Origin: Asterias amurensis
Taxonomy: Eukaryota
Assembly (NCBI RefSeq): GCF_032118995.1
Contig: NC_092652.1
Coordinates: 15,816,336 to 15,871,067, forward strand
Length of the DNA: 54,732 bases
Reading direction: 5' to 3'
Made by a program: the position numbers and the translations under genes. Positions 4,010 through 54,321 of the stretch are shown piece by piece (within the stretch, counting starts at the first letter, position 1; each line of letters begins with the position of its first letter). The notes under the pieces are model-generated. The model ran no database searches. It saw only the letters and a program-made list of their open reading frames with translations, and was not told the DNA's origin.

Positions 4010-4360
4010 GTGGGTGTGGTGGCCGAGCGGTCTAGGTCACCAGACCCAAGCTCTGGTGCTGTCGGCAGCAGAGTGTGGGTTCCAATCCCGGTCATAACAC
4101 TTGTGCCTTGAACATGTGTTGAACAAGGCACTTATAACCATAGTTGCTTTGTAAAACATTTGGAGTGTAGTGCATTCTGCTCTACCAGCCAGACTCTTAG
4201 TGTATGATACTCATGCCTATCCTTATAGACTGTGAAAGGGATAGCTTTGTTTCAGCCCCAAGAGTAGGTGGCAACGTGCCCCTTGTGACAGCTAAGTGTA
4301 GCCCTCACCTAGAAATGGTCTTCTATGGCCTTGTGATGTTAGGCAGTCTCCAAAAAAAGT
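4010..4360 (+). mobile_element. tRNA-derived SINE (family 5: same head, different body)
   Basis: Head ggtggccgagcggtctaggtcacc...cagagtgtgggttccaatcccggtcataacacttgtgcc. Body shared with 18316-18484 and 38485-38575. Confidence 0.65.
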
Positions 4361-8894: not shown

Positions 8895-9135
8895 CCAACC
8901 TCGAGTTTGTCATAGGCAACCTCAGGTCAGCTTTTATTGGGTGATTCAAGTAATGATGGGAGGGCAGAGATGGTTCTTGTGATTGATTTAGCTGAGTAGC
9001 GTTTATTTGTTGCTCAAGGCTGTTTACTCCCCAGGTAGCTAAGATGGTTTTAGGAGGTAATATAATATATCAAGTGCTTTGAGACACCCTTTGATTGTGA
9101 AAAGCGCTATATAAATCTGACTATTATTATTATTA
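8895..9135 (+). mobile_element. SINE family 1, 3-prime portion with (TTA)n tail
   Basis: Similarity to 17330-17440 and 48040-48205. Tail aaagcgctatataaatctgactattattattatt. Confidence 0.6.
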
Positions 9136-9579: not shown

Positions 9580-10256
9580 GTAAGTTCCCTTGTATTTGTG
9601 ATAATCAAGCATTTGTGGTAGTCACAAGTTCCATTGTTGAAAAACATCTCTTATTTTGTGTAAATCTAGATTTGTCAGTACCTAACACTCAAATTTGGAC
9701 GATGAAACAGGCATGATATTATTCATACTTTAGTGATTTTTGATTTCTTTTTGGCCCTTGGAAAAACATTAAAAAACTGATGAAATTGCCTGTAAGGTCT
9801 TTTTAAACCCTACACCATAGTCTATTCTATTGTAATGCCACAGCCCAACTTTTTGCTTAGAAAGGTTGAACAATTAGAAGGCATCAATTCAAACTGGAAA
9901 CAGTTTATTAATTTTGGTTTTTACCCATACACCGATGTGTGTTAGCACTGTATATACCCAGTATTTTCCCGAGTCCTGGAAACAGTTTGAACAAGATTAC
10001 ACAAATTTAAGTTTGTAAGGAAAACGCAGACATCAGTCATGCGATATAATTTGTTTCAACTGAAAGTATGCAGAAATGTTGAATTTGGTCACATCTGTTA
10101 ACATGGTTGGATATTTTGCTACATGTAACAATCGGCCGACCATGCAAACCAGCGACATTAGTTTATCAGCAATAGAAGGGTCTGTAAGAACAAGTAGTTC
10201 AGCCCTTGTACTTGGCAAAATGTTCCTGCTTTTTCCCCAAGAACAAAATATACCAG

Positions 10257-10580
10257 GGCCCAATTTCATAAAGGGGCTTCAGCAGAAAGTACTGCTTATT
10301 ACATTTTCTGCTGAGCTAAAATGAGCAGGATGCTTGCTTACTTGCATGTGTCGAGTGATGTCCTCGAACCACGATGGTTCTACATGCCTTTCTGTCTCCT
10401 ATTCATGCCGTCTTGAAATCTGCTAATTCCTGACCTGTGTCCATTAGTAAGTATGTCAGTGTATGTAAGTACAATGAGCAGGATACCAGTCACAAATTGC
10501 ACAAATAACAAGGTGGTTTGGCTGGTAACCTTTTTTCTGGTAAGCAACAATCTTGTCAGCAACTCTATGAAATTGGGCCC
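10257..10580. mobile_element. MITE family C (TIR gggcccaatttcatagagctgcttaagc)
   Basis: gggcccaatttcataaaggggcttcagc ... gcaactctatgaaattgggccc. Confidence 0.75.
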
Positions 10581-10649
10581 TGTTCTGAACACTGGACGTA
10601 ACAAAACTGATTTTGAAAAGAGAGCCATATGTCAAATATTTCATTTCAG

Positions 10650-13199: not shown

Positions 13200-13811
13200 G
13201 TAAGTGCTCACTTTCTGGTTTTTCTTCTTCAGTTGCTGTGAACACTGCCCAAATGGTATATTTAATAATGCAGCTCTCAGCGTTAAAAAATTCCTGTATT
13301 GATCGTATTCCCACTGTGTTCTCTGCTGCTCTGTGTATGGGTATAAGTTTGCGTGCAAGATGCAAGACGCATGTAATATCTTGACTGCACAGCGTTAACA
13401 TGCAAACACAATGCACAATATTTGCATCTTGTGTACGCATGGCAGACTGTGAGAATACGATCAAAAACGGGATTTTTTTTTGTGAGGAACATATGACGAC
13501 CAAAACCCACCGCAGAAAAATGTATGCTGCCATGGAATGTGAATCTGTTGAAATTAGTGGCTTCTTGCAGGAAGCTTTGAGTTATGAAGCTTTAAAAAAA
13601 TTTCGCCCCAGAAATGGACCCTGATATCCAGGACGTCACTCTAGTATAATGCGAAAGTGTAAGACCGCCAGGGCTAAGTAATTATCTAAAACTATTAATA
13701 ACTGTTAATACTTAACAGTATTTAACAGGGATGGGCATTGTGAAGTCCGAAATGTTGAAAAAGTTGGACTGCCGCCTGATTCGCCCTGATCATTGTCTTT
13801 CCTTCCTCTAG

Positions 13812-14057
13812 ATTACATCTTCAAGTATTACATCTCATTCCCCGAGAAGCAGCTCCTTGGAAACGACGACAAGACGCTGAAGAACATCTTTCCGAGTGAG
13901 TGCGCAAGACGTTGCGTCACCGAAACAGACTTTACCTGTCGCTCATTTGACTATGAACGCAACAAGATGACATGCTACCTCAGTAAGACCGACAAGAACG
14001 TGGCGGGAGGACTTGTACCATCATTTGAATCGCAGCACTTTGACTACTATGAGAGAG
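13812..14057 (+). CDS. exon encoding a complete PAN/apple-like domain (ECARRCVTETDFTCRSFDYERNKMTCYLSKTDKNVAGG), symmetric phase 1-1
   Basis: Acceptor ttccttcctctag, donor gtaggc at 14058. ORF 13793..14116 has the same frame. C..C...F.C.SF.Y......CYL spacing typical of PAN/apple modules. Confidence 0.8.
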
Positions 14058-14454
14058 GTAGGCAATATAAAAACAGATTGGTTTTAACAAAGGATTGTCT
14101 AAATTCTTCCAAGTGACCTATCACTGATTTTTTGAACAAACATTTTAGTCAAATTCTCTTCTTTTTTTAAAATACTTTTTACTTGATTTTGTTGTCTTTG
14201 TTCAATAATAGTTTACTTATACTACGCACATATCTGTCGATAAAGACACCCAAGCCGCACATAGAAAAAATTAATGGTTCATTTAAACAGAAAACTTGAT
14301 TCTGAAAGAACGCTTATTGAAAGAACGCTTATTGTCTTTAAAAATGGACTTGAAGCACCCAAGGGATGTAGATTAACAAAGATCTTATGTGAGAGTGTTC
14401 CAAACTCGTGGAGCAGCCACACAGAATGACCCAAAATTATTTAAAATTTATCTA

Positions 14455-14745: not shown

Positions 14746-15296
14746 CAACTCATGGGGTAAGGCTGACAGCAGACAGAGGACTGGCTATGTGCGTGTCCTC
14801 CGCTGTAATACTGGTGCAGAGACCACAGCAGGGCCCAATTTACCAGGGTTTACCGCTTACCACATTTTTATGCCTGCAATTACCAGTCTCTGCTTACTGT
14901 GCCAGTGTTGATCTTCTGCGCTCGCCTGTTACGCAAATAATGCCTATGGTGCGTTTGTTTAGCTTCCCTGGTGTGTGGCGTTTTTTTTTTCCAGGACGAA
15001 CGTGGGTAATTATCTGCACACGTTCGTCCTGGAAAGAAAAAACGGGACGCTAAACGAACGCACCCCTAGTAACATTGAGTCCGCTTGCACAAGCAAAAAT
15101 GTGAACCTGTGAACTACACTTGAATAAGTGCCGAATTCTCTGCATCCTTGAGCACCAATTCGTTGGTTACGGTAAGCGGACCTATAAAATGGGCCCAGAA
15201 CTGACTGCCTTCATAGGGTTAAGAGAAGATTGGATTGGCGAGAGGCTGTGCTGGTTGCCATTGAAATATTGTTTTATCTGTGTTTCTTTTTGCCAG

Positions 15297-15515
15297 ATTT
15301 CTCTGTGGCAGTTCCAATACCAACTAAAGCTCCTGGTACCGACATGGGATGCGCCAAAGGTTGGGGTCGATACAAGGGGTTCTGCTACTTTGCCAATCTA
15401 GCCGCACTGGAGTTCGCTGAGGCAGAGAAAGCATGCAAGAATCAAGGAGCTGAAATGGCTTCCATTTTAGACATGAATGCCAATAACTTCCTGAGGGCTA
15501 ACATCTACGAGAAAA
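15297..15515 (+). CDS. exon; CTLD-D N-terminal part (DFSVAVPIPTKAPGTDMGCAKGWGRYKGFCYFANLAALEFAEAEKACKNQGAEMASILDMNANNFLRANIYEK)
   Basis: Acceptor ttctttttgccag, donor gtaagt at 15516. ORF 15230..15538. Confidence 0.85.
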
Positions 15516-15631
15516 GTAAGTATTTCAAAACAGAGTAACATTGAAAAATAAACTGAAGTAACACTTTTCGCCATTGGTGAAGGGATGTGATTTCTCTGTT
15601 CTTAAAAAAAAAAGATTCTTGGTTTTTTTTG

Positions 15632-15668
15632 CCCCCCCCCCCCCCACAAAAAGAAAAAAAAAAAAAAT
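15632..15668. repeat. poly-C followed by poly-A tract
   Basis: gcccccccccccccccacaaaaagaaaaaaaaaaaaaa. Confidence 0.9.
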
Positions 15669-15756
15669 AATGAAGATAAAACCATATAAATTACGCCCCA
15701 GATTGCAGAGTAGGGCTTTTAAAACCAAAGATATATGTTATTATTGGGCTTCATGC

Positions 15757-16130
15757 TCGTTGCCTTGGATCGGACGAGTTGGTGTATAAAAAGCGTTTGA
15801 AACCGTTTGTTATAAAATGCATATGGTTAGAAAGATATTTAAAAAGTAGAATATAAGGATCCACACAAGTATCACTCGAAATTGCATGGTTTTCATTTTA
15901 CGTCGTGAACTAACGCGGTTGGCCATTTTATGGAGTCAAAATTTTGACTCCACAAAATGGCCGACTGTGTTTCTTCTCGATGTAAAAGGAAAACCGTGCA
16001 ATTTCCAGGCATGTTTGTGTGGATCATTGTATAATCTACTTTTAAATTATCTATCTGACCATTTGCATAACATAACAAACAGTTTCAAACGCTTTTCAAA
16101 GAACAACTCGACCGATCCAGATTTCCTTTA
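15757..16130. mobile_element. MITE family A copy with degenerate ends
   Basis: Full-length similarity to 3103-3472. Source of spurious ORFs 15886..16131 and 15893..16078. Confidence 0.7.
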
Positions 16131-16213
16131 ATGTTTTGGACAAAAGGCAACACCGTTGCCTACCATGATTCATGTGTTACATCATCATCTGATGACCTTG
16201 TTGTTCTCAACAG

Positions 16214-16371
16214 CAAAGACCATCACTCGCTACTGGATCGGTCTGAATGATAAGAAGACAGAAATGCTGTATGAATGGTCTGATGGTACTCCGGTAACCT
16301 ACACTAACTGGTATGCCCATGAACCCAACGATGCCAACGGTGAAGATTGTGTCGAGATATACACCGACATT
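16214..16371 (+). CDS. exon; CTLD-D middle with EPN (TKTITRYWIGLNDKKTEMLYEWSDGTPVTYTNWYAHEPNDANGEDCVEIYTDI)
   Basis: Acceptor ttctcaacag, donor gtaaga at 16372. ORF 16156..16407. EPN is the mannose-type motif. Confidence 0.85.
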
Positions 16372-16518
16372 GTAAGAAACACTATTTATGTAACTTTTCA
16401 TCAATGATTAATTCCAATGTGAAAGAAGTACTGAGTATACGGTGCTAACACACACCGATATATATGGGTTAAAGCAAAATTAATATTCTGTATGACACAC
16501 CTCTTGCTTGTTCTGTAT

Positions 16519-16662: not shown

Positions 16663-16926
16663 TTTAAAAAAACACCCTTGTCACATGAAGTTGCGTGCTT
16701 TCAGATGCTTGATTTCGGGACCTCAAAATCTAATTCTGAGGTCTCAAATTCAAATTCAAATATTTTAGTCAAAAAATTACTTCTTTCTCGAAAACTGCGT
16801 TACTTAAGAGTGAGCCATTTCTCAGCATGTTTTATACTATCAACAGCTCTCCATTGCTTGTTACCAAGTAAGTTTTTATGTTAACAATTATTTTAAGTAA
16901 CTACCATTAGTGTCAAGTGCCTTTAA
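16663..16926 (+). mobile_element. MITE family B copy, 5-prime truncated
   Basis: Internal and 3-prime TIR similarity. Accounts for ORF 16642..16884. Confidence 0.7.
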
Positions 16927-16960
16927 ATGAGTATACATGTTTGGAATTACTCTTTAACAG

Positions 16961-17068
16961 GGCTACTGGAATGACTTGAATTGTAAAGGATACACCTTCA
17001 GCTCTATCTGTAAGAAGCCTCTCTCTTCTGGTAACCCAGTACACTTGCCAGCCGCAACATGCCCAACT
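16961..17068 (+). CDS. exon; CTLD-D C-terminus plus linker plus first Cys of CTLD-E (GYWNDLNCKGYTFSSICKKPLSSGNPVHLPAATCPT)
   Basis: Acceptor ctctttaacag, donor gtaagt at 17069. Confidence 0.85.
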
Positions 17069-17165
17069 GTAAGTATACACAGCTCTTTTTCAGAGCCAAC
17101 ACTCCTTTGAAAAGAGATTTTACACATGGTTGTACCCGCAAGTTTACTTGTTATAGTTACTATGG

Positions 17166-17890
17166 TTGTCGTGGCCGAACGGGTAAGAGTACCGAACTCA
17201 AGCTCTTGTGTTTCTGTTAAGCAGAGTGTGCATGGGTTTGAATCCTGGTCCTGACACTTGTCTCCCTCGGAAAGACACTTCTAACTAAAATTGCTTCTCT
17301 CCACCCAGGGGTAATTGGGTACCTGTGAGGGCAGAGATGGTTCTTGTGATTGATTTAGCTTATGCGCATTATTATCGCAGGACAGTTCACTCCCTTAGGA
17401 GCTGAGATGGTTTAAGGAATGAATTAAGGCCCAGTTACCAGGGGTAATAATTTTGGAATCGCTTTAAAGCCATTGGACCCTTTAGGTAAACAGTATTGTC
17501 CAAGGCCCACACTATGTGTATCGCAACTTCGATATAAAATAACAAACCTGTGGAAATTTGGGCTCAATCGGTCATCGGAGTCGGGAGAAAATAACGGGAG
17601 AACCCACCCTTGAATCCGCACGTTTCGCCGTGTCATGACATAAATCCGTAATTCTCGATATCGAAACTTGATATTGTTTTACTGTTTTCTCAAAAAGTAA
17701 TGCTTTTCATGGAATAATATTTCAAGAGAAGTCTTTCACCACTACCTTCTGTAAACCCTGTAAGTTATTTGTAAATCTGTGAACTTTTTTTTTTTTTTTT
17801 TCTGTACCGAAAGGGTCCAATGGCTTTAAGACGCCCTCTGGTTGTGAAAAGCGCTTTATAATAACTGGTTATTATCATTACTATTATTTT
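17166..17890 (+). mobile_element. SINE family 1 copy interrupted by the MITE-G insertion (17465-17829)
   Basis: Head gtcgtggccgaacgggtaagagtaccg...gggtttgaatcctggtcctgacacttg. Tail resumes after the MITE. Confidence 0.7.
17465..17829. mobile_element. MITE family G copy inserted into a SINE, with a perfect TTAA duplication
   Basis: gcTTTAAagccattggaccctttaggtaaac ... gtaccgaaagggtccaatggctTTAAg. The flanking SINE sequence is continuous across a single TTAA (compare 9080-9110 and 48150-48190). Confidence 0.8.
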
Positions 17891-17968
17891 AACTTCTGAT
17901 TTACCACACCATGGATGCAAAGCTTCAAATAACAAATAAGATTAGATACAGATTTAAACCCATAACCT

Positions 17969-18218
17969 GGGCCCAATTTCATGGCTCTGCTTACCGCCGA
18001 ATTCTACGCTTACGATCACGATTCCCCGCTTACGTGCAAGCGCCGAATTTCTGCGCTAGCCTTGTAAGCGTAGAATGCCTAGTAACGCAGAGTACGCACG
18101 CGCAGAAGCCAAAATTCGCCGCTAACCCGTGAAATACGCTTGCCGTAAGCACAGAATTCCCTGCTTCCGTAAGCGCCAATTTTGTGCTTACGGTAAGCAG
18201 AGCCATGAAATTGGGCCC
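17969..18218. mobile_element. MITE family C, CpG-rich subfamily
   Basis: gggcccaatttcatggctctgcttaccg ... cggtaagcagagccatgaaattgggccc. Confidence 0.8.
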
Positions 18219-18315
18219 TGATGATGTCTTTGATATTCCAGAATGAGGTTTATTCATAAAGCGAAGTGAATTTTGTTGCATACCTGATTATTTGAGTCAC
18301 ATAATCTTACTTTGC

Positions 18316-18814: not shown

Positions 18815-19020
18815 AAATTCTGACTGGCACCCCCGAACAAAGATATTAACAAAATAGGGACACCGCCAACATAGGGCTAGATAGCTCAGTTGGTGGAGCG
18901 CTGGCTTGTTAATCCAGAGGTCGTTGGTTCGAATCCCACTCTAGTCAACTCTTTGTTCAACCCCCAAACTCATTTAAAAATTTACCCAGTCAGTTTCCCT
19001 TGTGGTTTATATTGATAACT
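18815..19020 (+). mobile_element. SINE family 3 copy; tRNA-like unit at 18876-18950 (anticodon-loop region cttgttaatcc, Lys-like)
   Basis: gggctagatagctcagttggtggagcgctggcttgttaatccagaggtcgttggttcgaatcccactctagtcaa. The 3-prime acceptor strand mismatches the 5-prime strand, so it is not a functional tRNA. Confidence 0.65.
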
Positions 19021-19054: not shown

Positions 19055-19170
19055 GGTTGGACAGGCTGGAATGATGTGTGCTACAAGATGGATTCTACCA
19101 AGGCTACATGGACTGATGCTGGTACTCAATGCAAGACTGCTGGTGGTCGACTGGTCATCATTGAAGACAA
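19055..19170 (+). CDS. exon; CTLD-E N-terminal part (GWTGWNDVCYKMDSTKATWTDAGTQCKTAGGRLVIIED)
   Basis: Acceptor atcgttaccag, donor gtaaat at 19171. Continues CPT|GW from the previous exon. Confidence 0.8.
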
Positions 19171-19364: not shown

Positions 19365-19619
19365 AAAACCGCCACACGTCACTTTCACACGAATTTGTGT
19401 GCTTTCGCAGATGCTTGATTTCGAGACCTCAAAATCTAATACTGAGATCTCAAACTTAAATTCGTGGAAAATTACTTCTTTCTCGAAAACTATGTCACTT
19501 CAAAGGGAGTCATTTCTCACAATGTTGTATACTATCATCCTCTCCTTACTCATTACCAAGTAAGGTTTTATGCTAAAAATTATTTTTGAGTAATTACCAA
19601 TAGTGTCCACTGCCTTTAA
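19365..19619 (+). mobile_element. MITE family B copy, 5-prime truncated
   Basis: Similarity to 6081-6473. Accounts for ORF 19342..19563. Confidence 0.7.
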
Positions 19620-20764: not shown

Positions 20765-20938
20765 GCTGCCGTCGATTTCACAAAGAGTTAGGACTTGTCT
20801 TATCTCGAGTTAGGACGAGTAACTCTTCCTAACTTAGGATTAATCTTAAGGTCTGCATGCTACAGTGCAGGGTTGGGACTCATCCTATGTCCTAAGATTA
20901 GTCTTAAGTTGGGAAGAGTTTTGTAAAATCGACGGCTG
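20765..20938. mobile_element. MITE family D (TIR cagccgtcgatttcacaaa, internal taggac/gtccta repeats)
   Basis: gctgccgtcgatttcacaaagag ... ttttgtaaaatcgacggctg. Confidence 0.75.
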
Positions 20939-22395: not shown

Positions 22396-22897
22396 GTAAG
22401 TTTTGGTCTGGCATTTCTTACAATTTACCTTTATCACGCTGTCACCATCTTGGTCATGTTCCCTGTTTCCGATCCCAGTAATGAATGCTAACATTCACTG
22501 CGCATGGCACATTCTAATATTTCGCCCATCCTCAGTTTGGTTACAATGAGTTGAAATGGAGTAAAATCAAGATGGCCACATCGTGATAAAATGCTTATAA
22601 TAAGAACAATTAGTGTGCACCTGTCCCCACAGATTGATCCAGGCACAGTACACTTCAATGAAATCTAAAAACTAAAGTTCAGTTATTTTTTTACATTGGT
22701 TTGAATTGCTACATTTTGTATACCTAGTGATCACTTAACCTCACCCCAAAAAAATACTTTTGTAAAAAAAAAGCTGCTCTAGTAATACAGAAAGGCATGA
22801 GTGTAAATTACTTTTTTATTGCACATCAATAAAGGGAAGGGAAACAATAACACAAAATGCCAACAAATTGTCAAAATGGATTACTTGCCCTCATGGC

Positions 22898-23142
22898 AGG
22901 GGCCAATTTCATAGAGCTGCTTAAGCAAAAAATGTGCTTAAGCACGAAAATAGCTCGCTTATTTTACACATGTTACTGGCCAAAATTTCATGCCATATAC
23001 ATTGCTTATGACTAGTATTTAGCTGTTGTTTACTTAGCATAACAATTGAGTGGAGTCTTGGCCGGTAATCTGATTTTACTAAGCAATGAATTTTTTGCTT
23101 AAGCAAAATTTTTTGCTTAAGCAGCTCTATGAAATTGGGCCC
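22898..23142. mobile_element. MITE family C copy
   Basis: ggggccaatttcatagagctgcttaagc ... gcttaagcagctctatgaaattgggccc. Confidence 0.8.
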
Positions 23143-23200
23143 TGGTCTCAAGACCTCATCATGGTCTCGACAAGCAACAGTCTCAGTCTCGGACAGAAAA

Positions 23201-24090: not shown

Positions 24091-24150
24091 CAATACTTTC
24101 TGCTCAAACAGCTCTTTCAAGAATCCCACATGATTTTGTTTCTTGACCAG

Positions 24151-24321
24151 GTTATGCATGGAGTGACGGCACACAAGTTGAATTCACTGACTGGGCACCA
24201 GGAGAGCCCAATGATTACGGTGGCCAGGAGGAATGCGTGGAGATTTATCTGCAGTCCGACAATAAATGGAACGATCTGTACTGCTGGTATCAGAGAAACT
24301 TCATCTGCCAAATACCCAAAG
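24151..24321 (+). CDS. exon; CTLD-F C-terminal part with EPN...WND (GYAWSDGTQVEFTDWAPGEPNDYGGQEECVEIYLQSDNKWNDLYCWYQRNFICQIPK)
   Basis: Acceptor tcttgaccag, donor gtttgt at 24322. ORF 24130..24390. Confidence 0.85.
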
Positions 24322-25312
24322 GTTTGTATTTTTTTTTCTTACGGAGTACCCCATGAAAAAACATGCATAATATGCTATAGGGATAGCTAAGTCCTAATTT
24401 CAACAGACCATCCAATGATAAAAAAAAAACGAAAATAAAAGAAACTAAATAATAGTTATTGGACTATGCCTCACTCACTAGAAAGTGATGAGAGACGCAA
24501 CAATTAGCATCACACTGCAAACATAATTGCCGTAAAACAGGACCTTACTTACACATAAGGTATTTATTTACTCTTCATTTGAATGACTGTATAAAGCTGT
24601 GTTCCTATTGGACTATTTTAAGTACCACTACTTTTCTGTAGAATTACAAAATTAAATCCAATGGGACTGCATGGTAAACTGACCTCCCTGTCAACTTACC
24701 CCGACCGTGATGAAAAAAATAGGCCTAAAGAGGTCGTGGAAGACTTCCCCGCAGCCACGTACCTTTACAGGGGTGCTAACAAATCCAATGGAAACAGCTC
24801 CGCTCTGTAAAAACCTACCTCCACTTGCTATAAAACGCTATACAAACTTCACGAAATGTAAGTCCAGGTGGGAACACATGGTAGAATTACACAAAGTCAG
24901 TCACGGTCATTTCCCGCGCGGTAGCGGAAGTCGAATGGAAATATGGCCGTAGACGGAGATTGTTGACAGTGTGTTGTGTAATGCACGTCAAAAGAACCCA
25001 GTGTACTTATCGTGAAGACGAGTGGTTTCGCCCCCGGTGTTCCTGGTTTGATTGGCTGCATATTGTGCTACAGCACCTTGTTAACCATTACTGGGTATTT
25101 TGTTTAGAAAATAGTGTTATACATCAAAAACGTAGCTCCACATACCTTGCAGGAAAACACTGAATGTTGAAGCACCATGAGTGTTGCTGAGTGACGAATT
25201 TGTGGGCTATGAGAAGCCACTATTATTATTATTATTAGCCACAATGTGATAAAACAATTTCTCAAATTTAGTATTGTGTTTAATTGTTTCTTGTGATGCG
25301 TTTCTATTCTAG

Positions 25313-25632: not shown

Positions 25633-26033
25633 TTAAAGGAACACGTTGCCTTGGACCAGTCCAGTTGGTCAAACATAGCGTTTGAAACTGTTTCTTTTGA
25701 AATGCATATGGTTAGAAAGAAATTTTAAAAGTACAACATAATGATCCAAACAAACATGCCTCGAAATTGCACGGTTTTCCTTTTATGTCGCGAACTAACA
25801 CGGTTGGCAGTTTATGGAGTCCAAATTTTGACTCCACATATAATGGCAGACAGTGTTTCTTTGCGATGTAAAAGGCAAACCGTGAAATTTCGAGGCATGT
25901 TTGTGTGGATCATTATATTCTACTTTTAAAATATCTTTAAAATGTCTTTCTTTATAAATGCATTTCATAACAAACGATTTCAAGCGCTTTTCAAAGACCA
26001 ACTCGACCGATCAAGGATAACGTGTTCCTTTAA
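25633..26033. mobile_element. MITE family A copy with TTAA target-site duplication
   Basis: cctTTAAaggaacacgttgcc ... cgtgttccTTTAActt. Confidence 0.8.
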
Positions 26034-26636: not shown

Positions 26637-27010
26637 TTAAAGACCTTGGACACCTTTGGTAATTGTCAAAGACCCGTCTTCTCACTTGTTGTATCTCAAC
26701 ATGTGCATAAAACAACAAGCCTGTGAAAATTTTAACTCAATTGGTCGTCGAAAGTTGCGAGAGAATAAAGGAAGAAAAAGCACCCTTGTCACACAAGTTG
26801 TGTGCTCTCAGATGCCTGAGGTCTCGAATTCAATTCAAATATTTTAGTGAGAAATTACATTACTTCTTCCTCAAAAACTACCTTAATTCAGAGGGAGCCA
26901 TTTCTCACAATGTTTTATACTACCAACAGCTCTCCATTTGTTCCATACCAAGTAAGTTTTTATGCTAACAATCATTTTGAGTAATTTCCGATAGTGTCCA
27001 GTGCCTTTAA
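26637..27010 (+). mobile_element. MITE family B full copy with TTAA TSD
   Basis: cagTTAAagaccttggacacctttggtaattg ... ccgatagtgtccagtgccTTTAAgag. Confidence 0.8.
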
Positions 27011-30614: not shown

Positions 30615-30626
30615 GTAAGTCATTTA

Positions 30627-30886
30627 GGGGCAAATTTCATAGAGCTGCTTAGCGACAAATTTTGTGCTTACTGTGCGATTTCTATTTCATAGACCATAAG
30701 CACATGAAAAGGCGTGCTAACCTTCTGGTGCGCACTGCACCAAAATAAATATCATTACAATGTTAACATGGTGAACGTGCAATTATGGTCGCTAATTTTT
30801 CTGCTAACTGCTAACCTGTACCTTAGCAACATTTTCTGCTGCAGTACAAAAATCTGCTTACCGCTAAGCAGTGCTATGTCGGGCCC
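30627..30886. mobile_element. MITE family C copy inserted 13 bp downstream of the splice donor at 30615
   Basis: ggggcaaatttcatagagctgcttagcg ... gcttaccgctaagcagtgctatgtcgggccc. Confidence 0.75.
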
Positions 30887-31795
30887 AGGTGTTTAGTGTC
30901 GGTTGTTTGCCTTATAGGCACTGAACACTATTGGTAATTACTAAAAAAATAAATGTTCGCAAAAAAAAATAACTTGGTAACAAGCAACTAAGAGCTGTTG
31001 ATAGAATAAAACATTGTGAGAAATGGCGCGCCCTCTGATGTAACATCATTTCTCACTCAAATATTAAACGCTTTCGGGCCTGAAGTCTTTTAAGGCATCT
31101 GAAAGCACACTAGTTTGTTTTTTCTTTCTCTAGGCCTGTCTCTTGCACTTTTGATCACCAATTGAGTCCAAATTTCCAAAGATTGTTTATTTTATGCATA
31201 TGTTTGGATACACCAAGTGAGAATACTGGTCTTTTCAATTCTTTATTTGTACATCTGTACATGTAAATGTAGATATTATATGTCCAAATTTCATTTCAAA
31301 AGGTGATAAGTGTATTTTAGATTTTGCCAAACATCTGGAGCATTTACGTTCACGCAGAAAGAATAATCTGTAAAACACAATCTGAGAAGCTTTACTGTCG
31401 GTAATGTTTCTCAGATTCAAACGTTTGTGGATAGTGATATCTTTTCCATTTAACCGCAGTACTTTGATGTGAAAAATGTCTCAAAATGAATTATACATGT
31501 ACTAAGTGCTTCTTTACAAGTATGTTTTAATTTTCATTAGTTTTCACTACCAACCATATACACGTACAACCCCTTTAGTTCGAAAGATTGCCTTTGTACT
31601 GGTACATGAACATGTCTGTCTTATTTTTTCAAAACCAAGGCTCTGTCATGATTGCATTTAGTTTGTTTAACTGTGGCGAAAAGTCAAAATGCAACCACCA
31701 CAACACAGCGTTGATGCAACCATGCTGTAAGATACAATTGTGTTTTACTATTTTGTTTGCTTTATTGTATTGTTTGATTATTTTGCATAATTCAG

Positions 31796-32583: not shown

Positions 32584-32828
32584 ATGATAAATACACAAAT
32601 CCAACCACCCCGCCGAAGTGTGACGGCTTGCCTGAGTACGAGAAGTACGGAGATGCCTGCTTCAAGGTTGACATCATTACTAAGAGGACATTTGAGGAAG
32701 CCAAGACGTTCTGCCAGAAGGATGGAGCAAACGTGGCCTCGATCCGCAACGGTTACGAGCAGGCCAAGTTGCAATCCATGGTCATGAAAGCGGATCAAAG
32801 TGTCTGGATTGGCTTGTATGACGACCCG
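32584..32828 (+). CDS. exon; linker plus CTLD-I N-terminal part (DDKYTNPTTPPKCDGLPEYEKYGDACFKVDIITKRTFEEAKTFCQKDGANVASIRNGYEQAKLQSMVMKADQSVWIGLYDDP)
   Basis: Acceptor ggtatcatttcag, donor gtaatt at 32829. ORF 32511..32942. Confidence 0.85.
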
Positions 32829-32948
32829 GTAATTCAATTGAAAACTTATAATTTACAAAACTCTTCTTGCACTTTCAGTGCGTGCATTTTCTTTTGCATT
32901 TTTAACCTAAAATGCCCAGCTCTTTTAGGTTTTATACATTAGTGTTAA

Positions 32949-33109: not shown

Positions 33110-33227
33110 TCATTGAGCCAATGTCATTCCTGTAGTTTTTCTCAGCTCCCCAAGGAGTATAAAGTCTCGGGCTGCTGTGGTTCCAAAGGCTTTTTCAAAC
33201 CAACCTCCTCCTTTGCAGGGCCCAGTT

Positions 33228-33461
33228 TCATAGAGCTGCTAAAAGCACAAAAATTTGCTAAGTATGAAATTTCTTCCCCGATAAAAACAGGATTACCAGC
33301 CAAATTTCCATTTGTTGCATACTGCTTGTTACTGGTATTCAGCTTTTGTTTGCCTATCCTGAAAATCACATGGAAATTTGGTTGGTAAACGTGTTTTAAT
33401 CTAGGAAGAAATTTCATGCCAAGCAAATTTGTGTGCGTAGCAGCTCTATGAAATTGGACCC
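33228..33461. mobile_element. MITE family C copy
   Basis: gggcccagtttcatagagctgctaaaagc ... gtagcagctctatgaaattggaccc. Confidence 0.75.
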
Positions 33462-33645
33462 AGGTACCCATTTATAACCCTAGGTGAGAAGAGAAGCAAT
33501 TATATTAAAGTATCTGGCTCAATACAAGGACACAAGTGTCATGACCAGGATTCAAACCCACTCTTTAACCATCTACACTTTAGTTGATGTTCTACTAAAC
33601 CACTCTGCCATGACTCCCTTTTTCTACTTATTTTATCTCCTGTAG

Positions 33646-33826: not shown

Positions 33827-34717
33827 GTAGGCAAGGGTTAACCCTGTAGAGAGGGCTGCTGACAGCTCATGCTGACTTTAGGCAAAGTCACACTGCAGCG
33901 ATAACAAAAGCGATAACGATCTTGAAGCAAAGAGAATACTTTCCATTGGGTGAATTACTCCACGCAGAATACGCACACGCTCATTAAATCAATAGGATGC
34001 GTTCTCTTGACGTCGTGATCGTTATTGTTTCTGTTTTTCCATTGTTAAAGGCACTCTCTTAAACAGCCAATAAAGGATGATCTCAAATATATAGATATTT
34101 CTAACAGCTGCAGTCCATACAGGAAACATAAAAAATATAACGAGTCTCTTACCTGACGTTAAACATGGTAAAAATGGGTTTTTGCCAGAACGCTCCAAGC
34201 CAAATTTCTGAAAAAACGTGGGGTCAAACAAGCCCGTGCGACAAAGGAATCGTGATGTCAGTGGCGGCTATTTTGAGTGGAAATGCCAAAGCTGGAGAAT
34301 TGTGTTCAAACCAATAGGGGATAATCGTCACTGGCGTCCAGGGTCATCATAATAGATAAGCCGTTTTTGACTCTCGGTTGAAAAAGCCGCGCGGCCGGGT
34401 GCATTTTTGACTCAAGTTATTTATTACTAAATGCAAATTTTGAGAGTAAAATGGTTATTAACCGGTATCTGCAATGTCTATTTGGCCATAGAAAGGTAAC
34501 AGTTGACATATTGAGATCATCCTTTATTGGCTCTTTAATATTTATGCATGACGTCATAATTCTCACCCAAAATGAGGCTATTGGCACACATCCCCCATCA
34601 CTTGCAGTGGCTGTGTCCATTACCTCATTTTGGATTGATTAGTAAGAAAGGCCTATTGTGTTGGCTTAAAAACTTGGTTACAGCTCCCTCTGAAGTAGCC
34701 TAGTGTTTGAGAAAAAA

Positions 34718-34946
34718 AGTAAATTCTCACTCAAATTCTTTAATTGAAATCAAGACCTCAGCTGAGGTCTCGAAATCAACCATCTGAAAGCACAGCTTGT
34801 GCGAAAAGGGTGTTTTTTCTTCCACTATTCTCTTTTGACCAATTGAGCTCAAATTTTGACAGGTTTGTTATTTTATGCATATGTTGAGACACATCAAGTG
34901 AGAAGATTGGTCTTTGACAACTACTGATAGTGTCCAGTGCCTCTAA
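34718..34946 (-). mobile_element. MITE family B copy, reverse orientation, truncated
   Basis: Reverse-complement similarity to the MITE-B internal region and TIR. Confidence 0.65.
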
Positions 34947-36450: not shown

Positions 36451-36596
36451 CAGCCGTCGATTTCACAAAAATTCTTCCTGACTTTAGATTAATCTTAGGA
36501 CTTAGGACGAGTCCCAACCCTGCACTGTAGCATGCAGACCTTAAGATAAATCCTAAGTTAGACGAGTCCTAAGCTCTTTGTGAAATCGACGGCAGG
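36451..36596. mobile_element. MITE family D copy with an internal deletion (second unit of the tandem duplication)
   Basis: cagccgtcgatttcacaaaa ... ctttgtgaaatcgacggcagg. Confidence 0.7.
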
Positions 36597-36680
36597 GTCC
36601 TAGAGGTGAGGATGGGGAAAGGTACTTTTTAAGCCAACCTAAACTACCAAATGACAAACAAATGTCTCTGACGTTTGCAG

Positions 36681-36848
36681 GTGGCTGGAAGTGGATTGAT
36701 GGCTCCCCAGTGGCTTTTACCAACTGGGCTAATGGCGAGCCTGACGATGACTCGGCAGGGTGTGCAGAAATCTGGCCAGATTCGCAGGGCAAATGGTTTG
36801 ACGTATCCTGTACTGTCAATAGCCACTATGTCTGTGAGATGCCAAAAT
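36681..36848 (+). CDS. exon; CTLD-J C-terminal part with EPD...WFD (GGWKWIDGSPVAFTNWANGEPDDDSAGCAEIWPDSQGKWFDVSCTVNSHYVCEMPK)
   Basis: Acceptor gacgtttgcag, donor gtaagt at 36849. ORF 36662..36886. Confidence 0.85.
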
Positions 36849-37277
36849 GTAAGTTACATTCATCTTTAATATTTTCTTCTTCTTGAAGCCCCTTACTACT
36901 TAAAGTGGTTTTCAGCCTTGTTTGGGACAAATTTGCATGAGACAAGAATAAATTAAACAAACACTACCAGTACTTGGTATTGGTGTGAATCTGTATATTC
37001 TACTTTAAATACTTTGTATTGTTGTTGTCCGCTTGGTTGTCTGTTTTTTCTGTCCTGTAAGGCATCCCCCCCCCCAACTTCAAGCTCTGTTTTTTCGGGA
37101 TTTACCCACACATTACTCCCCCTTTAAGTTTTTATTTATTTAATGTCCATGTTGTATGCCTCTGCTGAGTGTTAGTTTACTTTATATTCAGTAGTTGTCT
37201 ATTTTCGTCTTTCTGTGATATGGAAATAAATGTTATACGAATGAATGAAAATGCAGACAGATTTACACATGACTGAA

Positions 37278-38876: not shown

Positions 38877-39125
38877 TCGCATCCCCTTAAGGTGATCACC
38901 TAGCTGCCGCCTCCCAGGTTGTATCGTAATTTGGGTGTGATCCCTGGCTACACGGCAGTTAACGGTTGTATGGCTTCTGACTGGCACCCCCGAACAAAGA
39001 TATTGACAACATAGGGACACCGCCAATATAGGGCTAGATAGCTCAGTTGGTAGAGCGCCGACACGTTAATCCGGATGTCGTTGGTTCGAATCCCACTCTA
39101 GTCAATTCTTTGTTCAACCCCCCCC
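38877..39125 (+). mobile_element. SINE family 3 copy; tRNA-like unit at 39034-39110
   Basis: Conserved upstream module plus gggctagatagctcagttggtagagcgccgacacgttaatccggatgtcgttggttcgaatcccactctagtcaa. Confidence 0.65.
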
Positions 39126-40072: not shown

Positions 40073-40880
40073 GAGAGAGAGAGGCAGAATGCAAACGAGA
40101 AAACCAAGGGGTAAGCAATAAATAAGGGGATAAAAGAGTGGTTTGGAGTTGACTGCATGAAGTTGAAACACAGAGGACAGAGGGAGAACAAATATTTCAG
40201 TGGTGAATAAGGCAGACTAAAATGGAGATATCTTTTGGAAAGGGAGAAGGAAAAGACAAAAAAAATCTATTAGTCATTTTCTTGTTAGATGTTCAAACCA
40301 TTGGATTGAATGTTCTGAAGGCGCCTAATCCACAGTTTCTCCTTACTCAACGAACAATCTCTCGGTGGTTAGCTATTACCTCAATGCTTTGTAAAATCAT
40401 TTCAGGAATGGAATGATTAGGAATATTGAAGTGATGTCCTTACAGGTGTGTCCAGCTTTTGGGTCTTGACTGTGGATCTGTGGCCGTAGAAGTGCCTCTT
40501 GATTGTAGTTCTTGTTTCACCTACATGTATATATTGAAAACCACAAGCTTTGCAAGATATCAGATAGATGCGATCAGTGGTTATGGAGGTGACATGACCC
40601 CTTGATTGTCTTATGGGTATGGCTGGTGAAAGAGTGAGATTCCCTGATGTATTTTCTACAGACGTTGCATTTGGAGATGTTGGAACATCTGAAAGTTCCC
40701 TGTGGTAGGAAACCTCTGATGGTCGCCTTCAACTCATCCCAGTCCAGCATCAGAGTTCTAAGCTCAGTGGTTTCGTGTTGCGTCCTTCTTCAGCTTGTCT
40801 ACGAGTGTAGTAATGTCTTACAGGTGTATCCAGCTTATAGGTGCGTTGACTGATAATGATTTGAATGATTTCATTTACAG

Positions 40881-41019: not shown

Positions 41020-41575
41020 TTCAGGGCCAAATTTTATAGTGCTGCTTACTGGACACAATTAGTAATTGTCAAAGACCAGTCTTCTCACTTCGTGTATCTC
41101 AAAATATGCACAGAATAACAGACCTGAAAATTTGAGTACAGTTGGTCGTCGAAGTTGCGAGATAATAATGAAAGAAAAACACCCTTGTCACACGGGGAGT
41201 TGCTTTGATTTTGAGACCTCAAAATCTAATTCTGAGGTCTCGAAATCAAATTCATGGAAAGTTACTTCTTTCTTGAAAACTATGAGGGAGCCGTTTCTCA
41301 CAATGTTTTATACTATGAACAGCTCTCCATTGCTTGTTACAAAGTAAGTTTTTATGCTAACAATTATTTTGATTAATTACCAATACAGTCTTCTGCCTTT
41401 TATGGCAGATTTTGTGCTTACTGTACAATTTCCATTTCATAGCTAACCGTAAGCATATGAAAAGGCGTGCTAACTGTCCTGCGCTTACTGCACGAAAATG
41501 CATGACGACACATGTAAATCCCTAACCTGTAATATGCGCTTCTGCTTAAGCAAATTATTCTGTTGCAGCTAGCAT
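41020..41575. mobile_element. MITE family C copy split by a nested MITE-B insertion
   Basis: gggccaaattttatagtgctgcttac at 41020-41046, rest at 41398-41575. Similar to 30627-30886. Confidence 0.65.
41047..41397 (+). mobile_element. MITE family B copy nested inside a MITE family C copy
   Basis: Interrupts the MITE-C element spanning 41020-41575. Accounts for ORF 41066..41347. Confidence 0.7.
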
Positions 41576-42924: not shown

Positions 42925-43385
42925 ATTCTGAGACCCACTGATTTAGCTATGGCGTATACAGCAGCCACAGCCAGGAACACTGGGGCAAACCCCTTCTCTT
43001 TTCGATAAGTGCACAGCCGTCGATTTCACAAAACTCTTCCTAACTTAAGACTAATCTTAGGACTTAGGACGAGTCCCAACCCTGCACTGTAGCATGCAGA
43101 CCTTAAGATTAATTCTAAGTTAAGAAGAGTTACTCGTCCTAACTCGAGATAAGACGAGTCCTAACTCTTTGTGAAATCGACGGCTGGGTTCTTTTACATA
43201 CATTACACATCACGTAGGACCAACGGCTTTATGTCCATTCCAAAGGACGGAGCAATGGTTGAGTGTCTGGCTTAAGGACACAAGTGTCACGGCTGGGGAT
43301 TCGAACCCACACTCTGCTGATCAGAAACACCCGCCACAAATTTGATGCTCCTAACCTCTCGGCCATGACACTTCCAGTAGTGACA
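42925..43385 (-). mobile_element. SINE family 2 copy, reverse orientation, carrying the nested MITE-D (43017-43186)
   Basis: Flanks align to 39830-40072 when the MITE is removed. Confidence 0.7.
43017..43186. mobile_element. MITE family D copy nested inside a reverse-oriented SINE
   Basis: Interrupts the SINE segment ...cttttcgataagtgcac | ... | ggttctttt. Compare the intact copy at 39930-39960. Confidence 0.75.
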
Positions 43386-43532: not shown

Positions 43533-43875
43533 GTGTCGCGGCCGAGTGGTTAAGAGCATCGAATTCAAGTTCTGGTGCAGTCACCGGAGTGTGGGTCTGA
43601 ATCCTGGTCGAGACAGTTGTCTCCTTGAGCAAGATACTTTACTATAATTGCTTCTCTTCACCCAGGGGTATAAATGGGTACCTGCGAGGGTAGAGGTTGA
43701 TACTGTGAATGAAAAGCTTTCGGAGCGCCACAGCATCTCGGGGCTGTAAACTCCCTAATGGGAGCTGAGAAAGATTAAAGGGATGTTTATTGGCCCAATG
43801 ACCATGGGACTAATGTAAAGCGCACTGATACGGTTTATTGTGAAATGCGCTATATAAGAATTTGTTATTATTATC
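43533..43875 (+). mobile_element. SINE family 1 full copy
   Basis: Head gtcgcggccgagtggttaagagcatcg...ggagtgtgggtctgaatcctggtcgagac. Tail gcgctatataagaatttgttattattatc. Accounts for ORF 43417..43647. Confidence 0.75.
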
Positions 43876-44108
43876 TTTGAGAGGACAAGGCCATTTTCAT
43901 TTTCCCAAAGGGCATTTCCATAGGAAAGTCTCTCAGAATGTTATGATGGGCACCAAGGCCAAAACCAGGGCAACAGAACAGAATACATGGCCTCAGTAGT
44001 GGCCACTGTGTAATTCCAGGCCTATATTGAAAAAAAAATGTTTACTTTGTAATTATTATTTTTGTCACAATATAATGTTGTATACTGTGTCCTGTTTGTC
44101 TAACGAAG

Positions 44109-44473: not shown

Positions 44474-44757
44474 ACATGGTGTATACTCGGTACTTTCCCG
44501 AGTTCTGTGAAAAAATTTCACATGCATATTACTCTAGCGGGATTGGATTCCACGACTCTTGCAATTCTAGAGCAGTGTCTTACCAACTAGACTACTTTGC
44601 CTAGTTACTAGAGGCAGTTGGAATCCTATATTTTGGCTGCGGGTACCGGGCAATCTCAGTAGTCTAGTTGGTAAGACACTGCTCTAGAATTGCAAGATTT
44701 GTGGGTTCGAATCCCACCCGAGAAAGTACTGAGAGTATACAGTGCTATGGGTAAAAA
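44474..44757. mobile_element. inverted dimer of SINE family 4 forming a ~120-bp-arm hairpin
   Basis: Arm 44474-44600 is the reverse complement of arm 44660-44757 (..gcaattctagagcagtgtcttaccaactagact..). A-rich tail at 44750-44771. Confidence 0.65.
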
Positions 44758-45071: not shown

Positions 45072-45136
45072 GTATGTTGTTTATATTTCTCACATTTATT
45101 TCTGCTTTTGTTTTGCTTAACGGGAAGTTACACGTT

Positions 45137-45490
45137 TGGGATTGTCAAAGACCAGTCTTCTCACTTGGTGTATCTCAACATAAGCATACAATAACAAGCC
45201 TGTGAAAATTTGGGCTCAATTGGTCATCGAAGTTGCAAGAAAATGAAGAAAGAAAAAACACCCTTGTTGGACGAAATTGTGTGCTTTTAGATAGGAATAA
45301 AAGACTTCTAGCTAGAAGTCTGTTATTATTTTAGTGAGAAATTGCCTCTTTCTAAAAACTACGTTACTTCAGAGGGAGTCGTTTCCCATAATGTTTTATA
45401 CTATCAACAGCTCTCCAATGCTTGTTACAAGTAAGTTTTTTAAGTTAATATTTGTTTTGAGTAATTACCAAACGTGTACCTTCCCTTTAA
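45137..45490 (+). mobile_element. MITE family B copy, 5-prime TIR truncated
   Basis: Starts 66 bp after the donor at 45072. ORF 44742..45194 reads into it. Confidence 0.7.
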
Positions 45491-47528: not shown

Positions 47529-47702
47529 CACTGGACACCTTTGGTAATTGTCAAAGACCAGTATTCTTACTGTTTCTCAACATAAGCAAAAAAAAAAAAA
47601 AAATCTGTGAAATGTTTTACTCAATTGGTCGTCGATATTGCAAGAGAATATTGAAATAAAAAAACACCGTTGTTGCACAAATTGTTGTGCTTTCAGATGC
47701 CT
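47529..47702 (+). mobile_element. MITE family B copy, 3-prime truncated
   Basis: 5-prime TIR cactggacacctttggtaattgtcaaagacc plus internal region. Confidence 0.65.
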
Positions 47703-47884
47703 AAAAAGGGGCTTCATAAGGCCTGGAGTATTTTACTATTTCGCAAGTAGAAATTAGGTTTCACGTTTTACAAAATATTCCACTTGCCAGCAATTTATTA
47801 ACATTCAACCCTAACGGCAGACTAAAAATGTACAGAGCATTTGTTTCTTGCCCATGCTATGATAATTTGTTTGTTTATTATGGG

Positions 47885-48210
47885 GTGTCGTGGCTGAGCG
47901 GATAAGAGCACCGAATTCAAGCTCTGCTGATTCTGTTCAGCAGTGTGTGGGTTCGAATCCCGGTCGTGACACTTTTGTCCCTGAGCAAGACACTTCACTA
48001 TAATTGCTTTTCTCCACCTAGGGGTAAACAGGTACCTGTGAGGGCAGAGTTGGTTCTTGTGATTGATTAGCCTTGGTTGCGCTACATATTTAGCGGCACA
48101 GGCTGTATACTCCCCAGGGAGCTGAGATGATTTAAGGAATGATTTAAGGCCCAGTGACCAGGGGTAACAATGTTGAAGTGCTATATAAGAAGCCACTATT
48201 ATTATTATTG
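47885..48210 (+). mobile_element. SINE family 1 full copy
   Basis: Head gtcgtggctgagcggataagagcaccg...gtgtgggttcgaatcccggtcgtgacac. The minus-strand 178-aa ORF 47822..48358 lies entirely over this element. Confidence 0.75.
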
Positions 48211-48288: not shown

Positions 48289-48549
48289 TGGTTCCCCCAA
48301 CACCGCCCTCGTTTATTCCTGGCAACTGTCCCCCAAAATGGATAGGGTTCGGTGACAACTGCTACATGTTTGAAGCAGAGTTGCAGTACGTGTCATGGTG
48401 GGAGGCGTCTTATTTCTGCGAGAAAACCTTTGACAATTCGCACATCTTGAACATCCACAGTAGAGGGGAGAATGCATTTGTCAAGAGGGTAGCTGCAGAG
48501 AAGTATGGGTACTATGGAGTGTGGCTGGGCTTGACACGTAACACAACTG
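48289..48549 (+). CDS. exon; linker plus CTLD-N N-terminal part (VPPTPPSFIPGNCPPKWIGFGDNCYMFEAELQYVSWWEASYFCEKTFDNSHILNIHSRGENAFVKRVAAEKYGYYGVWLGLTRNTT)
   Basis: Acceptor ttttctcgtggacag, donor gtaagt at 48550. ORF 48222..48557. Confidence 0.85.
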
Positions 48550-48949
48550 GTAAGTAAGCGTGATCTTTCATATTTGGTTGAAGATTAAGCTTAAGTATGC
48601 CTTTATATTTTTTAATCATCCAATGGGGGACTTTGCGGACGCGTGGTGGCAGCAGACTTACAGGTAAAATACAATTTACCTGGTAAGTCTGCTGCCACCT
48701 AAACATTCCGAAGTCTCCCATTGGTTTAATCTTATGTAGTTGTAGATATATTTGTGTGAGATACAGTGTTTAATCCAGATAAAAACCTTTGGCAGTTGAA
48801 GAAAAGTTTATTTATGATGATAGAGCTTGGGAGTATGCAGTGCTAACACACATCAGTGTATGTGGGTTAAAATCAAAATTATTATTCTTTATCCCCGATG
48901 CAAATTTCCATCTATTAAATCACTGGCCTTGTTTCATTTCCCTCTGTAG

Positions 48950-50378: not shown

Positions 50379-50722
50379 TTAAAGGAACACGTTGCCATGG
50401 ATCGGACGAGTTGGTCTATAAAAAGCGTTTGTAAACGTTTTTTATAAAATGCATATGGTTGGAAAGATGTTTTAAAAGTAGAATCAATGATCCACACAAG
50501 TTTGCCTCAAAAGTGCGTGGTTTTCCTTTTACTGCGCGAACTAACACGGTCGGTGTTAGTCGACGAGGTAAAAGGAAAACCGTGCAATTTCGAGGCATGT
50601 TTGTGTGGGTTATTGTATTAAACTATTACAACATCTTCCTTCCCATATGCATTTTATAAAAAATAGTTACAAACGCTTTTCAAAGACCAACTCGACCGAT
50701 CCAAGGCAACATGTTCCTTTAA
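50379..50722. mobile_element. MITE family A copy with TTAA flanks
   Basis: TIRs aggaacacgttgccatggatcg and ggatcggtcgagttggtc..atgttcct. Confidence 0.75.
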
Positions 50723-54129: not shown

Positions 54130-54321
54130 CAAAATAATAACAAGTACAATTTCAAACTTTGCATGGTGGAAATATGATATGGAAAGGTTTGTGATAACAC
54201 CATGTAATGACCATCTTAACCACCCCAACTCATTTAGAAAATAATAACAATCGAATGAATTGTTTTGCCTCACAAAAGTCATTTCACTCTTGTTTACTTA
54301 TCATTTTTTTTTTTACCAAAG

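Follow-up and report, generated by a model that had tools for sequence, protein, structure and literature searches.

A short non-autonomous element inserted at TTAA in a SINE-like repeat, probably of Kolobok rather than piggyBac type

Which kind of transposase moves a short, gene-less element that is bordered by TTAA on both sides? The question is raised by MITE-G, an element nested in a SINE-like repeat of the stretch of DNA analysed here, which is 54.7 kb long in its entirety and is called the window throughout. In genome annotation TTAA-flanked MITEs are routinely assigned to piggyBac, and the original prediction for this locus also spoke of piggyBac-type targeting; the present case shows that the terminal dinucleotide needs inspection before such an assignment is made. 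The comparisons presented below point to MITE-G being probably a Kolobok-type non-autonomous MITE, integrated at TTAA and related to another family of the window, family B.

The window looks like invertebrate-type eukaryotic DNA, with a G+C content of 36–44%. A long gene on the + strand (13037–48554) has an exon for a PAN domain (13790–14113) and numerous exons for C-type lectin domains, and the best named relatives, from Ptychodera, Acropora and Strongylocentrotus, show 35–43% identity. The introns of this gene are packed with short repeats, and all MITEs and SINEs discussed here are intronic; MITE-G itself lies between exon pieces near 16958–17040 and 19070–19170. With a spliced C-type-lectin exon peptide as query, contigs of about 90% identity (L002–L005) were found in ENA marine metagenomes; they stop at window position 16562, short of the MITE-G site, and provide no orthologous empty site for it. 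In one of these orthologs (L002 1336–1713, from SOLA22-1, about 90% identical) the intron corresponding to window 15576–16180 has a SINE, and the window side has a poly-A/C tract and a copy of family A (15758–16120). The intron is not alignable, its junctions being too diverged for empty sites, and the difference reads as lineage-specific repeat turnover.

The predicted 365-bp element within a SINE copy is real: read from the sequence, its body measures 358 bp, or 366 bp with both TTAAs, and its terminal inverted repeats of 16 nt are perfect (Table 1). Non-coding, shorter than 600 bp and with such ends, it has the generic features of a MITE. No coding capacity was found in it, judging by its short stop-free stretches, the longest of which, 84 aa, extends into the SINE and has at most ~70 aa within G. 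Nothing indicates a host function for MITE-G.

Table 1. Positions in the window of MITE-G, its host repeat, related and neighbouring elements and lectin exons
Feature	Position	Strand	Basis and remarks
5' copy of the duplicated target TTAA	17464..17467	+	read directly; the SINE before it ends ...GGAATCGCT
MITE-G body, 358 bp, non-coding, ends 5'-AG...CT-3'	17468..17825	+	sequence and external copies
5' terminal inverted repeat, AGCCATTGGACCCTTT	17468..17483	+	perfect 16/16 complement of 17810–17825
3' terminal inverted repeat, AAAGGGTCCAATGGCT	17810..17825	+	reverse complement of 17468–17483
3' copy of the duplicated target TTAA	17826..17829	+	the SINE picks up again directly after it with GACGCCCTCTGG
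T17 run inside MITE-G, near the 3' terminal inverted repeat	17785..17801	+	read directly
5' block of MITE-G, ~145 bp, with homology to family B; contains ...ACAAACCTGTGGAAATTTGGGCTCAATCGGTCATCGGAG...	17468..17612	+	blastn
SINE-like repeat, part 5' of the insertion, head with A-box/B-box-like motifs	~17164..17463	+	80% identity to 47883–48175, 72% to 43534–43808
SINE-like repeat, part 3' of the insertion (...GTGAAAAGCGCTTTATAATAA... and TTA-rich tail)	17830..17889	+	82% identity to 9078–9132
Uninterrupted SINE paralog	9010..9135	+	alignment; TTGA at 9079–9082 where the 17-kb copy has TTAA
Uninterrupted SINE paralog across the site (...GCGCACTGATACGG...)	43534..43880	+	alignment
Nested B copy in a family-C MITE, flanks TTA(del) and TTTA	41046..41402	+	paralog 30626–30750 has a single TTAG (30649–30652)
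Family B reference, TTAA-AGGCACTGGACACC...CACTGCCT-TTAA	6081..6463	+	homologous to G
Other B copies	26637–27010, 41049–41398, 45117–45490, 53750–54130, 30912–31234(-), 34680–34946(-)
Partial B copies	16667–16926, 19385–19619, 47529–47702
Family A reference, TTAA-AGGAACACGTTGCC...GGCAACGTGTTCCT-TTAA	3101..3471	+	TSD and AGG start; not homologous to B/G
Other A copies	25633–26033, 50379–50722, 51006–51352(-), 15758–16120
C-type lectin exons, examples	15188–15535, 16240–16380, 19070–19170, 24147–24353, 32600–32830, 36584–36883, 48300–48554	+

MITE-G is present once in the window. Six-frame stop-free translations of it, used as a protein query, matched 49 ENA 'proteins' that correspond to ORFs reading through G-like copies, and retrieval of six of the contigs behind the matches (L006–L011, public ENA metagenomes, 76 kb) provided eight further full copies of 87–92% identity, together with many B copies and one A copy. 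The nine full copies of G, one of them in the window, are thus dispersed and uniform in length (355–369 bp), and their outer flanks are all unrelated. Other searches returned little: a degenerate pattern of the B and G terminal inverted repeats matched metagenome contigs only once (in L001, where a truncated copy of B has TTAA at its 5' end) and viral contigs not at all, the unique-flank ORFs adjoining MITE-G, used as a protein query, were matched by nothing, and a literature search for the terminal repeat strings gave chance primer matches only. As to the ENA 'proteins' of 170–280 aa that match MITE-G (L006–L011; ERZ21849167, ERZ21849173), their loci do not translate to them by the standard or the bacterial code, and they appear to be artefactual gene calls on eukaryotic repeat DNA under another genetic code.

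The host repeat is represented by further copies at 47883–48200, 43534–43880 and 8957–9135, with shorter head matches elsewhere. A tRNA-derived SINE is a fair description of it in view of the ARAGORN call of tRNA-Leu(CAA) in a related SINE head (4013–4100) that matches SINE positions 4–102; Rfam, run on SINE heads including that of the 17-kb copy, returned no tRNA match. For the empty-site comparison the element and one TTAA were deleted in silico and the restored SINE was aligned to its paralogs, all of which stand in for the pre-insertion allele and are neither orthologous nor allelic to it. The SINE proved to be continuous across one TTAA, as predicted, with no gap over the junction against three uninterrupted paralogs, two in the window and one in an external contig. 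The restored junction of the 17-kb copy is ...GGAATCGC-TTTAA-GACGCCCTCTGGTTGTGAAAAGCGC, and the corresponding site reads ...TCAAGTGC-TTTGA-GACACCCTTTGATTGTGAAAAGCGC in the 9-kb copy (~9010–9135), ...AAAGCGC-ACTGA-TACGG... in the 43-kb copy (~43745–43880) and ...GGAAGCGT-TTTGA-GAAGCCCT... in the external copy (L010 4932–5055). The uninterrupted site had been placed at 9080–9110 and 48150–48190; the former copy does span it, with TTTGA and not TTTAA, and the latter, by alignment, is devoid of ~31 bp including the insertion site. The empty allele at 17464–17829 should read ...GGAATCGCTTTAAGACGCCC... with one TTAA.

Because TTAA is palindromic and stands here in the context TTTAA|A, this single filled and empty pair fits several models equally well, namely a target duplication of 4 bp with the ends AG...CT, of 2 bp (TA) with AAG...CTT, of 3 bp (TWA) with ends shifted by one position, or none at all; discrimination among them needs many independent copies, and G is single-copy in the window. 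Termini were collected by a fuzzy search for the terminal 16-mer that was blind to the flanks. Exact TTAA adjoins 13 of 17 G-type termini, and the remaining four tetranucleotides (TTGA, TTCA, TTTA and TAAA) each differ from it by one mismatch or reflect an indel artefact. At all 17 termini T is found at -4 and A at -1, and position -5 is unconserved (T6/C8/A3). TTAA was also found at 22 of 40 B-type matches, the others being accounted for by degenerate copies or by chance, and the intact ends of family A show the same pattern as G. TTAA occurs 378 times in the 54.7 kb, i.e., at ~0.007 per position, and its presence on the flanks of these elements is far above chance.

A shorter duplication, with TTAA lying partly in the ends of the element, would place MITE-G among the commonest MITE types, either with Stowaway-like elements (TA; Tc1/mariner/pogo, AAGCC...GGCTT) or with Tourist-like ones (TWA; PIF/Harbinger), and the lone comparison of G in the SINE agrees with 4, 2 or 0 bp alike. 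Under the TA model the base outside TA is expected to be free, yet it is T at every one of the 17 G-type termini, conservation ending only at -5, and the ends of A and B behave likewise; the TWA model needs asymmetric ends and one free outer base, neither of which is seen, all four bases being symmetrically invariant on both sides. Such a shorter duplication is hardly credible, and both the TA and the TWA model are judged to be ruled out by the flank invariance in the terminus survey. The other reading that departs from a 4-bp duplication regards TTAA as the outermost part of the element and not as target-derived, and it has in its favour that TTAA extends the inverted repeat perfectly at essentially every end. 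The original prediction itself had named variable, non-TTAA flanks as the sign of this; the 17 G-type termini have exact TTAA or a tetranucleotide one mismatch away. If the element is taken out along with both TTAAs, each of the five nested insertions described below comes out 4 nt shorter than the paralogs, and a TTAA that belongs to the element is extremely improbable.

These five insertions of G or B into other repeats are independent, and each corresponds to one TTAA-like tetranucleotide in the uninterrupted paralogs, never zero or two. Apart from G in the SINE at 17 kb, with TTGA or CTGA in the paralogs, they comprise the B copy of the window that lies in a family-C MITE (Table 1), where GCTGC-TTAG-CGACAA of the paralog is to be compared with GCTGC-TTA...B...TTTA-TGGCAG of the filled site; a G copy (L007 10064–10427) likewise in a family-C MITE, with a single TTAC or a single TTAT at the site in the paralogs of the window; a B copy (L007 19607–19984) in another repeat, with one TTAA in one paralog and an 11-nt indel nearby in the other; and a B copy within a B copy (L009 1392–1769), where the site in four B copies without an insertion reads TTCAA or TTCAG, 1 nt longer than the restored TTAA. 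Removal of the element with one TTAA restores colinearity in three of the five cases, and in the other two there is a small indel nearby (11 nt and 1 nt). The site sequences of the paralogs thus vary (TTGA, CTGA, TTAG, TTAC, TTAT, TTAA and TTCAA), and since only a single TTAA-like tetranucleotide is present in the paralog of every nested case, the TTAA of the filled site is the duplicated target and not just the outer end of the element. The predicted integration at TTAA with duplication of the target is in this way corroborated by the G-type termini, by the G copies with unrelated flanks and by the nested insertions. A 4-nt staggered cut and a blunt insertion between TT and AA of an element with the ends AA...TT have an equal sequence outcome, and as TTAA is palindromic the two are not separable by sequence alone. 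For the joined flanks of the family A copies no spanning paralog was found, and the support for a duplication in A consists of the invariant TTAA flanks.

The family-C MITEs, with ends C(A/T)GGGCCCAATTTCATAGAGCTGCTTA..., are located at 10254–10582, 17965–18222, 22897–23144, 33216–33465, 30626–30750 and 41022–41048 + 41403–41560. Their inverted end holds a TTAA-like site (GCTGC-TTAA/TTAC-G) that was hit independently by the B copy of the window and by the G copy of L007, and this site may be a local hotspot for TTAA-targeting families. It is also of note that at L007 12866–13582 a G copy lies directly next to an A copy, with one T(G)AA common to both (...CCAATGGCT-TGAA-AGGAACACG...); it would seem that the target duplication of one TTAA-targeting element served as the insertion site for the other.

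The relations among families A, B and G differ from those first proposed, according to which all three have internal blocks in common. B and G are clearly homologous by sequence: blastn of positions 1–150 of G against B copies gives 69–77% identity, and the local alignment score is 49–52 against 12 ± 1.5 for shuffles (z 25–28). Between A and B or G the scores are the same as those of shuffles (z ~0), only TTAA and AGG being common to them, and family A is a long near-palindrome. The part common to B and G consists of the ends and ~145 bp on the 5' side; the 3' internal half of G differs and is conserved among the G copies. G is a family in its own right, and a derivative that is chimeric in part. 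The TTAA on both sides of the A copies at 3101, 25633 and 50379 and of the B copies at 6081 and 26637 was predicted correctly. The single TTAA-targeting superfamily proposed for A, B and G holds by homology for B and G, and the inclusion of A is plausible from TTAA and the AG end signature. Together with a single-copy element, H, the three families make up 22 intervals, ~17 substantial copies and 5 fragments, which cover 6.1 kb or 11% of the window; the predicted number of more than 20 copies is reached only by counting the fragments. Element H (34059–34538) is 480 bp long and has 28-nt inverted ends with TTAA on both sides (TTAA-ACAGCC...GGCTCT-TTAA; TTAA-ACAGCCAATAAAGG...CCTTTATTGGCTCT-TTAA); it resembles neither A nor B nor G, has no second copy in 137 kb and is a candidate mobile element only. 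A further short inverted-repeat family, with the ends CAGCCGTCGATTTCACAAA...TTTGTGAAATCGACGGCTG, is unrelated to A, B and G and occurs at 20768–20936, 36453–36593 and 43014–43186.

In a Kolobok system the autonomous partner has the same terminal inverted repeats and encodes a DDD/E transposase with a C/DxxH signature, and the partner transposase of piggyBac elements, which excise precisely, belongs to the DDE_Tnp_1_7 family. The 20 longest stop-free stretches in the window, scanned with Pfam, yielded no transposase domain, in line with the predicted lack of an autonomous transposase there, and the long ORFs in 82 kb of related contigs, read by eye, show nothing obviously transposase-like.

The choice between superfamilies is made by the ends. 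In the literature consulted, piggyBac and Kolobok are the only superfamilies described as TTAA-specific (PMC9587614), and the TTAA duplication established above, by the 13 exact G-type termini with the others one off and by the five nested insertions, agrees with either. Kolobok elements generate TTAA-specific duplications of 4 bp, and it is their 5'-RR...YY-3' termini that set them apart from piggyBac (Kojima and Bao, PMC9587614). The sequences adjoining TTAA in the present families (AGGCACTGGACAC and AGCCATTGGAC, and AGGAACACGTTGCC in family A) conform to this pattern, with AGCC...GGCT in G, AGGC...GCCT in B and AGGA...TCCT in A. All ten full-length Xenopus Kolobok copies listed in one study, with six distinct TIR pairs, also start with AG (AGCGA, AGGAG, AGGAC, AGGGG, AGAGC; the TIRs begin with AGCGATTC, AGGAGAAG, AGGACATG, AGGGGAAC and AGAGCAAG) (PMC6004289), and Kolobok elements occur widely among marine invertebrates (PMC9587614; Repbase list in PMC6004289 supplement).

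Mobilisation by a TTAA-targeting piggyBac-like transposase would equally account for the TTAA duplications in all families; piggyBac is the best-known TTAA-specific superfamily, and positions 2–3 of the TIR deviate in some piggyBac-like elements (PMC5381638). The CC[C/T]T terminal motif, however, is the hallmark of piggyBac and is regarded as a requirement for transposition (PMC2872659), C is retained as the first base of the TIR throughout 157 piggyBac-like elements (PMC5381638), and every terminus of G, B and A begins with A (AGCC, AGGC, AGGA), never with C. The TTAA-anchored inverted-repeat pairs that mark whole elements in the window all start with A, mostly AG, and none with CC; two extra pairs of this kind are internal palindromes of family A. 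This end feature is precisely the one that separates Kolobok from piggyBac (PMC9587614), and the 20 window ORFs scanned with Pfam contain no piggyBac transposase domain. A piggyBac-type MITE is unlikely, and the 'piggyBac-type' label of the original prediction was rejected for the 5'-AG...CT-3' ends, which a Kolobok-like assignment fits instead. It is quite unlikely, too, that the elements belong to some other TTAA-preferring group, whether a Sola-like one with a 4-bp duplication or a lineage not yet described, in which case the AG ends would be a coincidence. Such a group would be in keeping with the finding of no transposase tied to these ends in the window or the related contigs, with a signature, RR...YY, of two nucleotides only, and with G and B being without AGGRR; against it stand the TTAA specificity described, in the literature consulted, for piggyBac and Kolobok only (PMC9587614), the wide distribution of Kolobok across marine invertebrates (PMC9587614; PMC6004289 supplement) and, for Sola, the AWWT duplications of Sola2 (PMC3627910), which are incompatible with TTAA. 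Sola was rejected on this ground. A bolder proposal, and a distinctly improbable one, is that A, B and G are mobilised by a TTAA-specific transposase lineage distinct from both canonical Kolobok and piggyBac, or by a branch of Kolobok as yet undescribed in this animal group, and that G represents the birth of a new MITE family in which the ends and the 5' block of B were fused to unrelated sequence. The preferred assignment to Kolobok, suggested for G and B and probably extending to A, is drawn from two features, the TTAA duplication and the two-nucleotide end signature.

Among known elements, the Xenopus T2-MITEs (Xmix and others), defined by TTAA and a terminal AGGRR (PMC6004289), are similar in several respects: the TTAA target with its 4-bp duplication, the 5'-AG...CT-3' (RR...YY) termini, the lack of coding sequence, a length of a few hundred bp and the occurrence of many families at high copy number in introns. 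Unlike in these MITEs, no linked Kolobok transposase was seen here, and the published TIRs share only AG(G) with the present elements. The host differs too, being here an invertebrate, probably a marine one. The AGGRR start is found in A alone (AGGAA), B starting with AGGCA; because G starts with AGCCA, it is filed, on its sequence, as Kolobok-like and not as a T2-MITE in the strict sense. The piggyBac MITEs, such as the coral CMITEs, human MER75/MER85 and Daphnia mPok, are also small, with a TTAA duplication and TIRs of 13–16 bp, and are nested in repeats, but they keep CC[C/T]T...A[G/A]GG, whereas A, B and G begin with AG and end with CT. The KolobokP solo LTDRs (Kojima and Bao 2022) are non-autonomous Kolobok elements of a few hundred bp with short TIRs of their own, present in marine invertebrates including echinoderms, molluscs and amphioxus. 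In contrast to G, B and A, which measure 340–400 bp, have strict TTAA flanks and show no LTDR-INT architecture, they are ~450 or ~660 bp long, have duplications of 3–5 bp and form direct repeats around an internal region or multimers.

MITE-G can then be pictured as a gene-less, non-autonomous cut-and-paste DNA transposon, related to the abundant family B but diverged from it and in part chimeric. An autonomous relative located elsewhere in the genome, presumably of Kolobok type, would provide a transposase in trans, and this enzyme would bind the 16-bp inverted ends of MITE-G, excise a MITE-G copy and integrate it at a TTAA in the older SINE, where a 4-nt staggered cut followed by gap repair would leave TTAA on both sides. 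In kind, G is an ordinary non-autonomous DNA transposon; the families are new, the kind is already known and will be no surprise to the specialist. AG-ended, TTAA-flanked elements fitting Kolobok take up about 11% of this 55-kb genic window, and their correct assignment determines which transposase is to be sought and bears on how much piggyBac and Kolobok invertebrate genomes are estimated to contain.

Several minor features were noted in passing. An exon-like ORF at L009 11540–11730 (...FPFSQPEILKKWVISMKRDNWSPSKKSVLCSDHFEQSCFDRTGQTTRLKAGVVPTSF...) resembles by eye a THAP zinc-finger domain; its position is close to the end of the contig, and no terminus of A, B or G is linked to it. On the - strand of the window, the ORF at 40420–40728 contains ...CKACGFQYIHVGETRTTIKRHFYGHRSTV..., by eye like the GIY-YIG nuclease motif of Penelope-like retroelements, and had no Pfam match at E <= 0.01. 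Besides the Leu-CAA call at 4013–4100, which overlaps a SINE-head-like repeat, ARAGORN called tRNAs at 18875–18947, 39032–39104 and 44653–44725, two of them Asn-GTT and one Ser-AGA, the Ser call being within one arm of a 68-nt inverted repeat (44529–44596 / 44658–44725); all four may be tRNA-derived repeats instead of functional genes.
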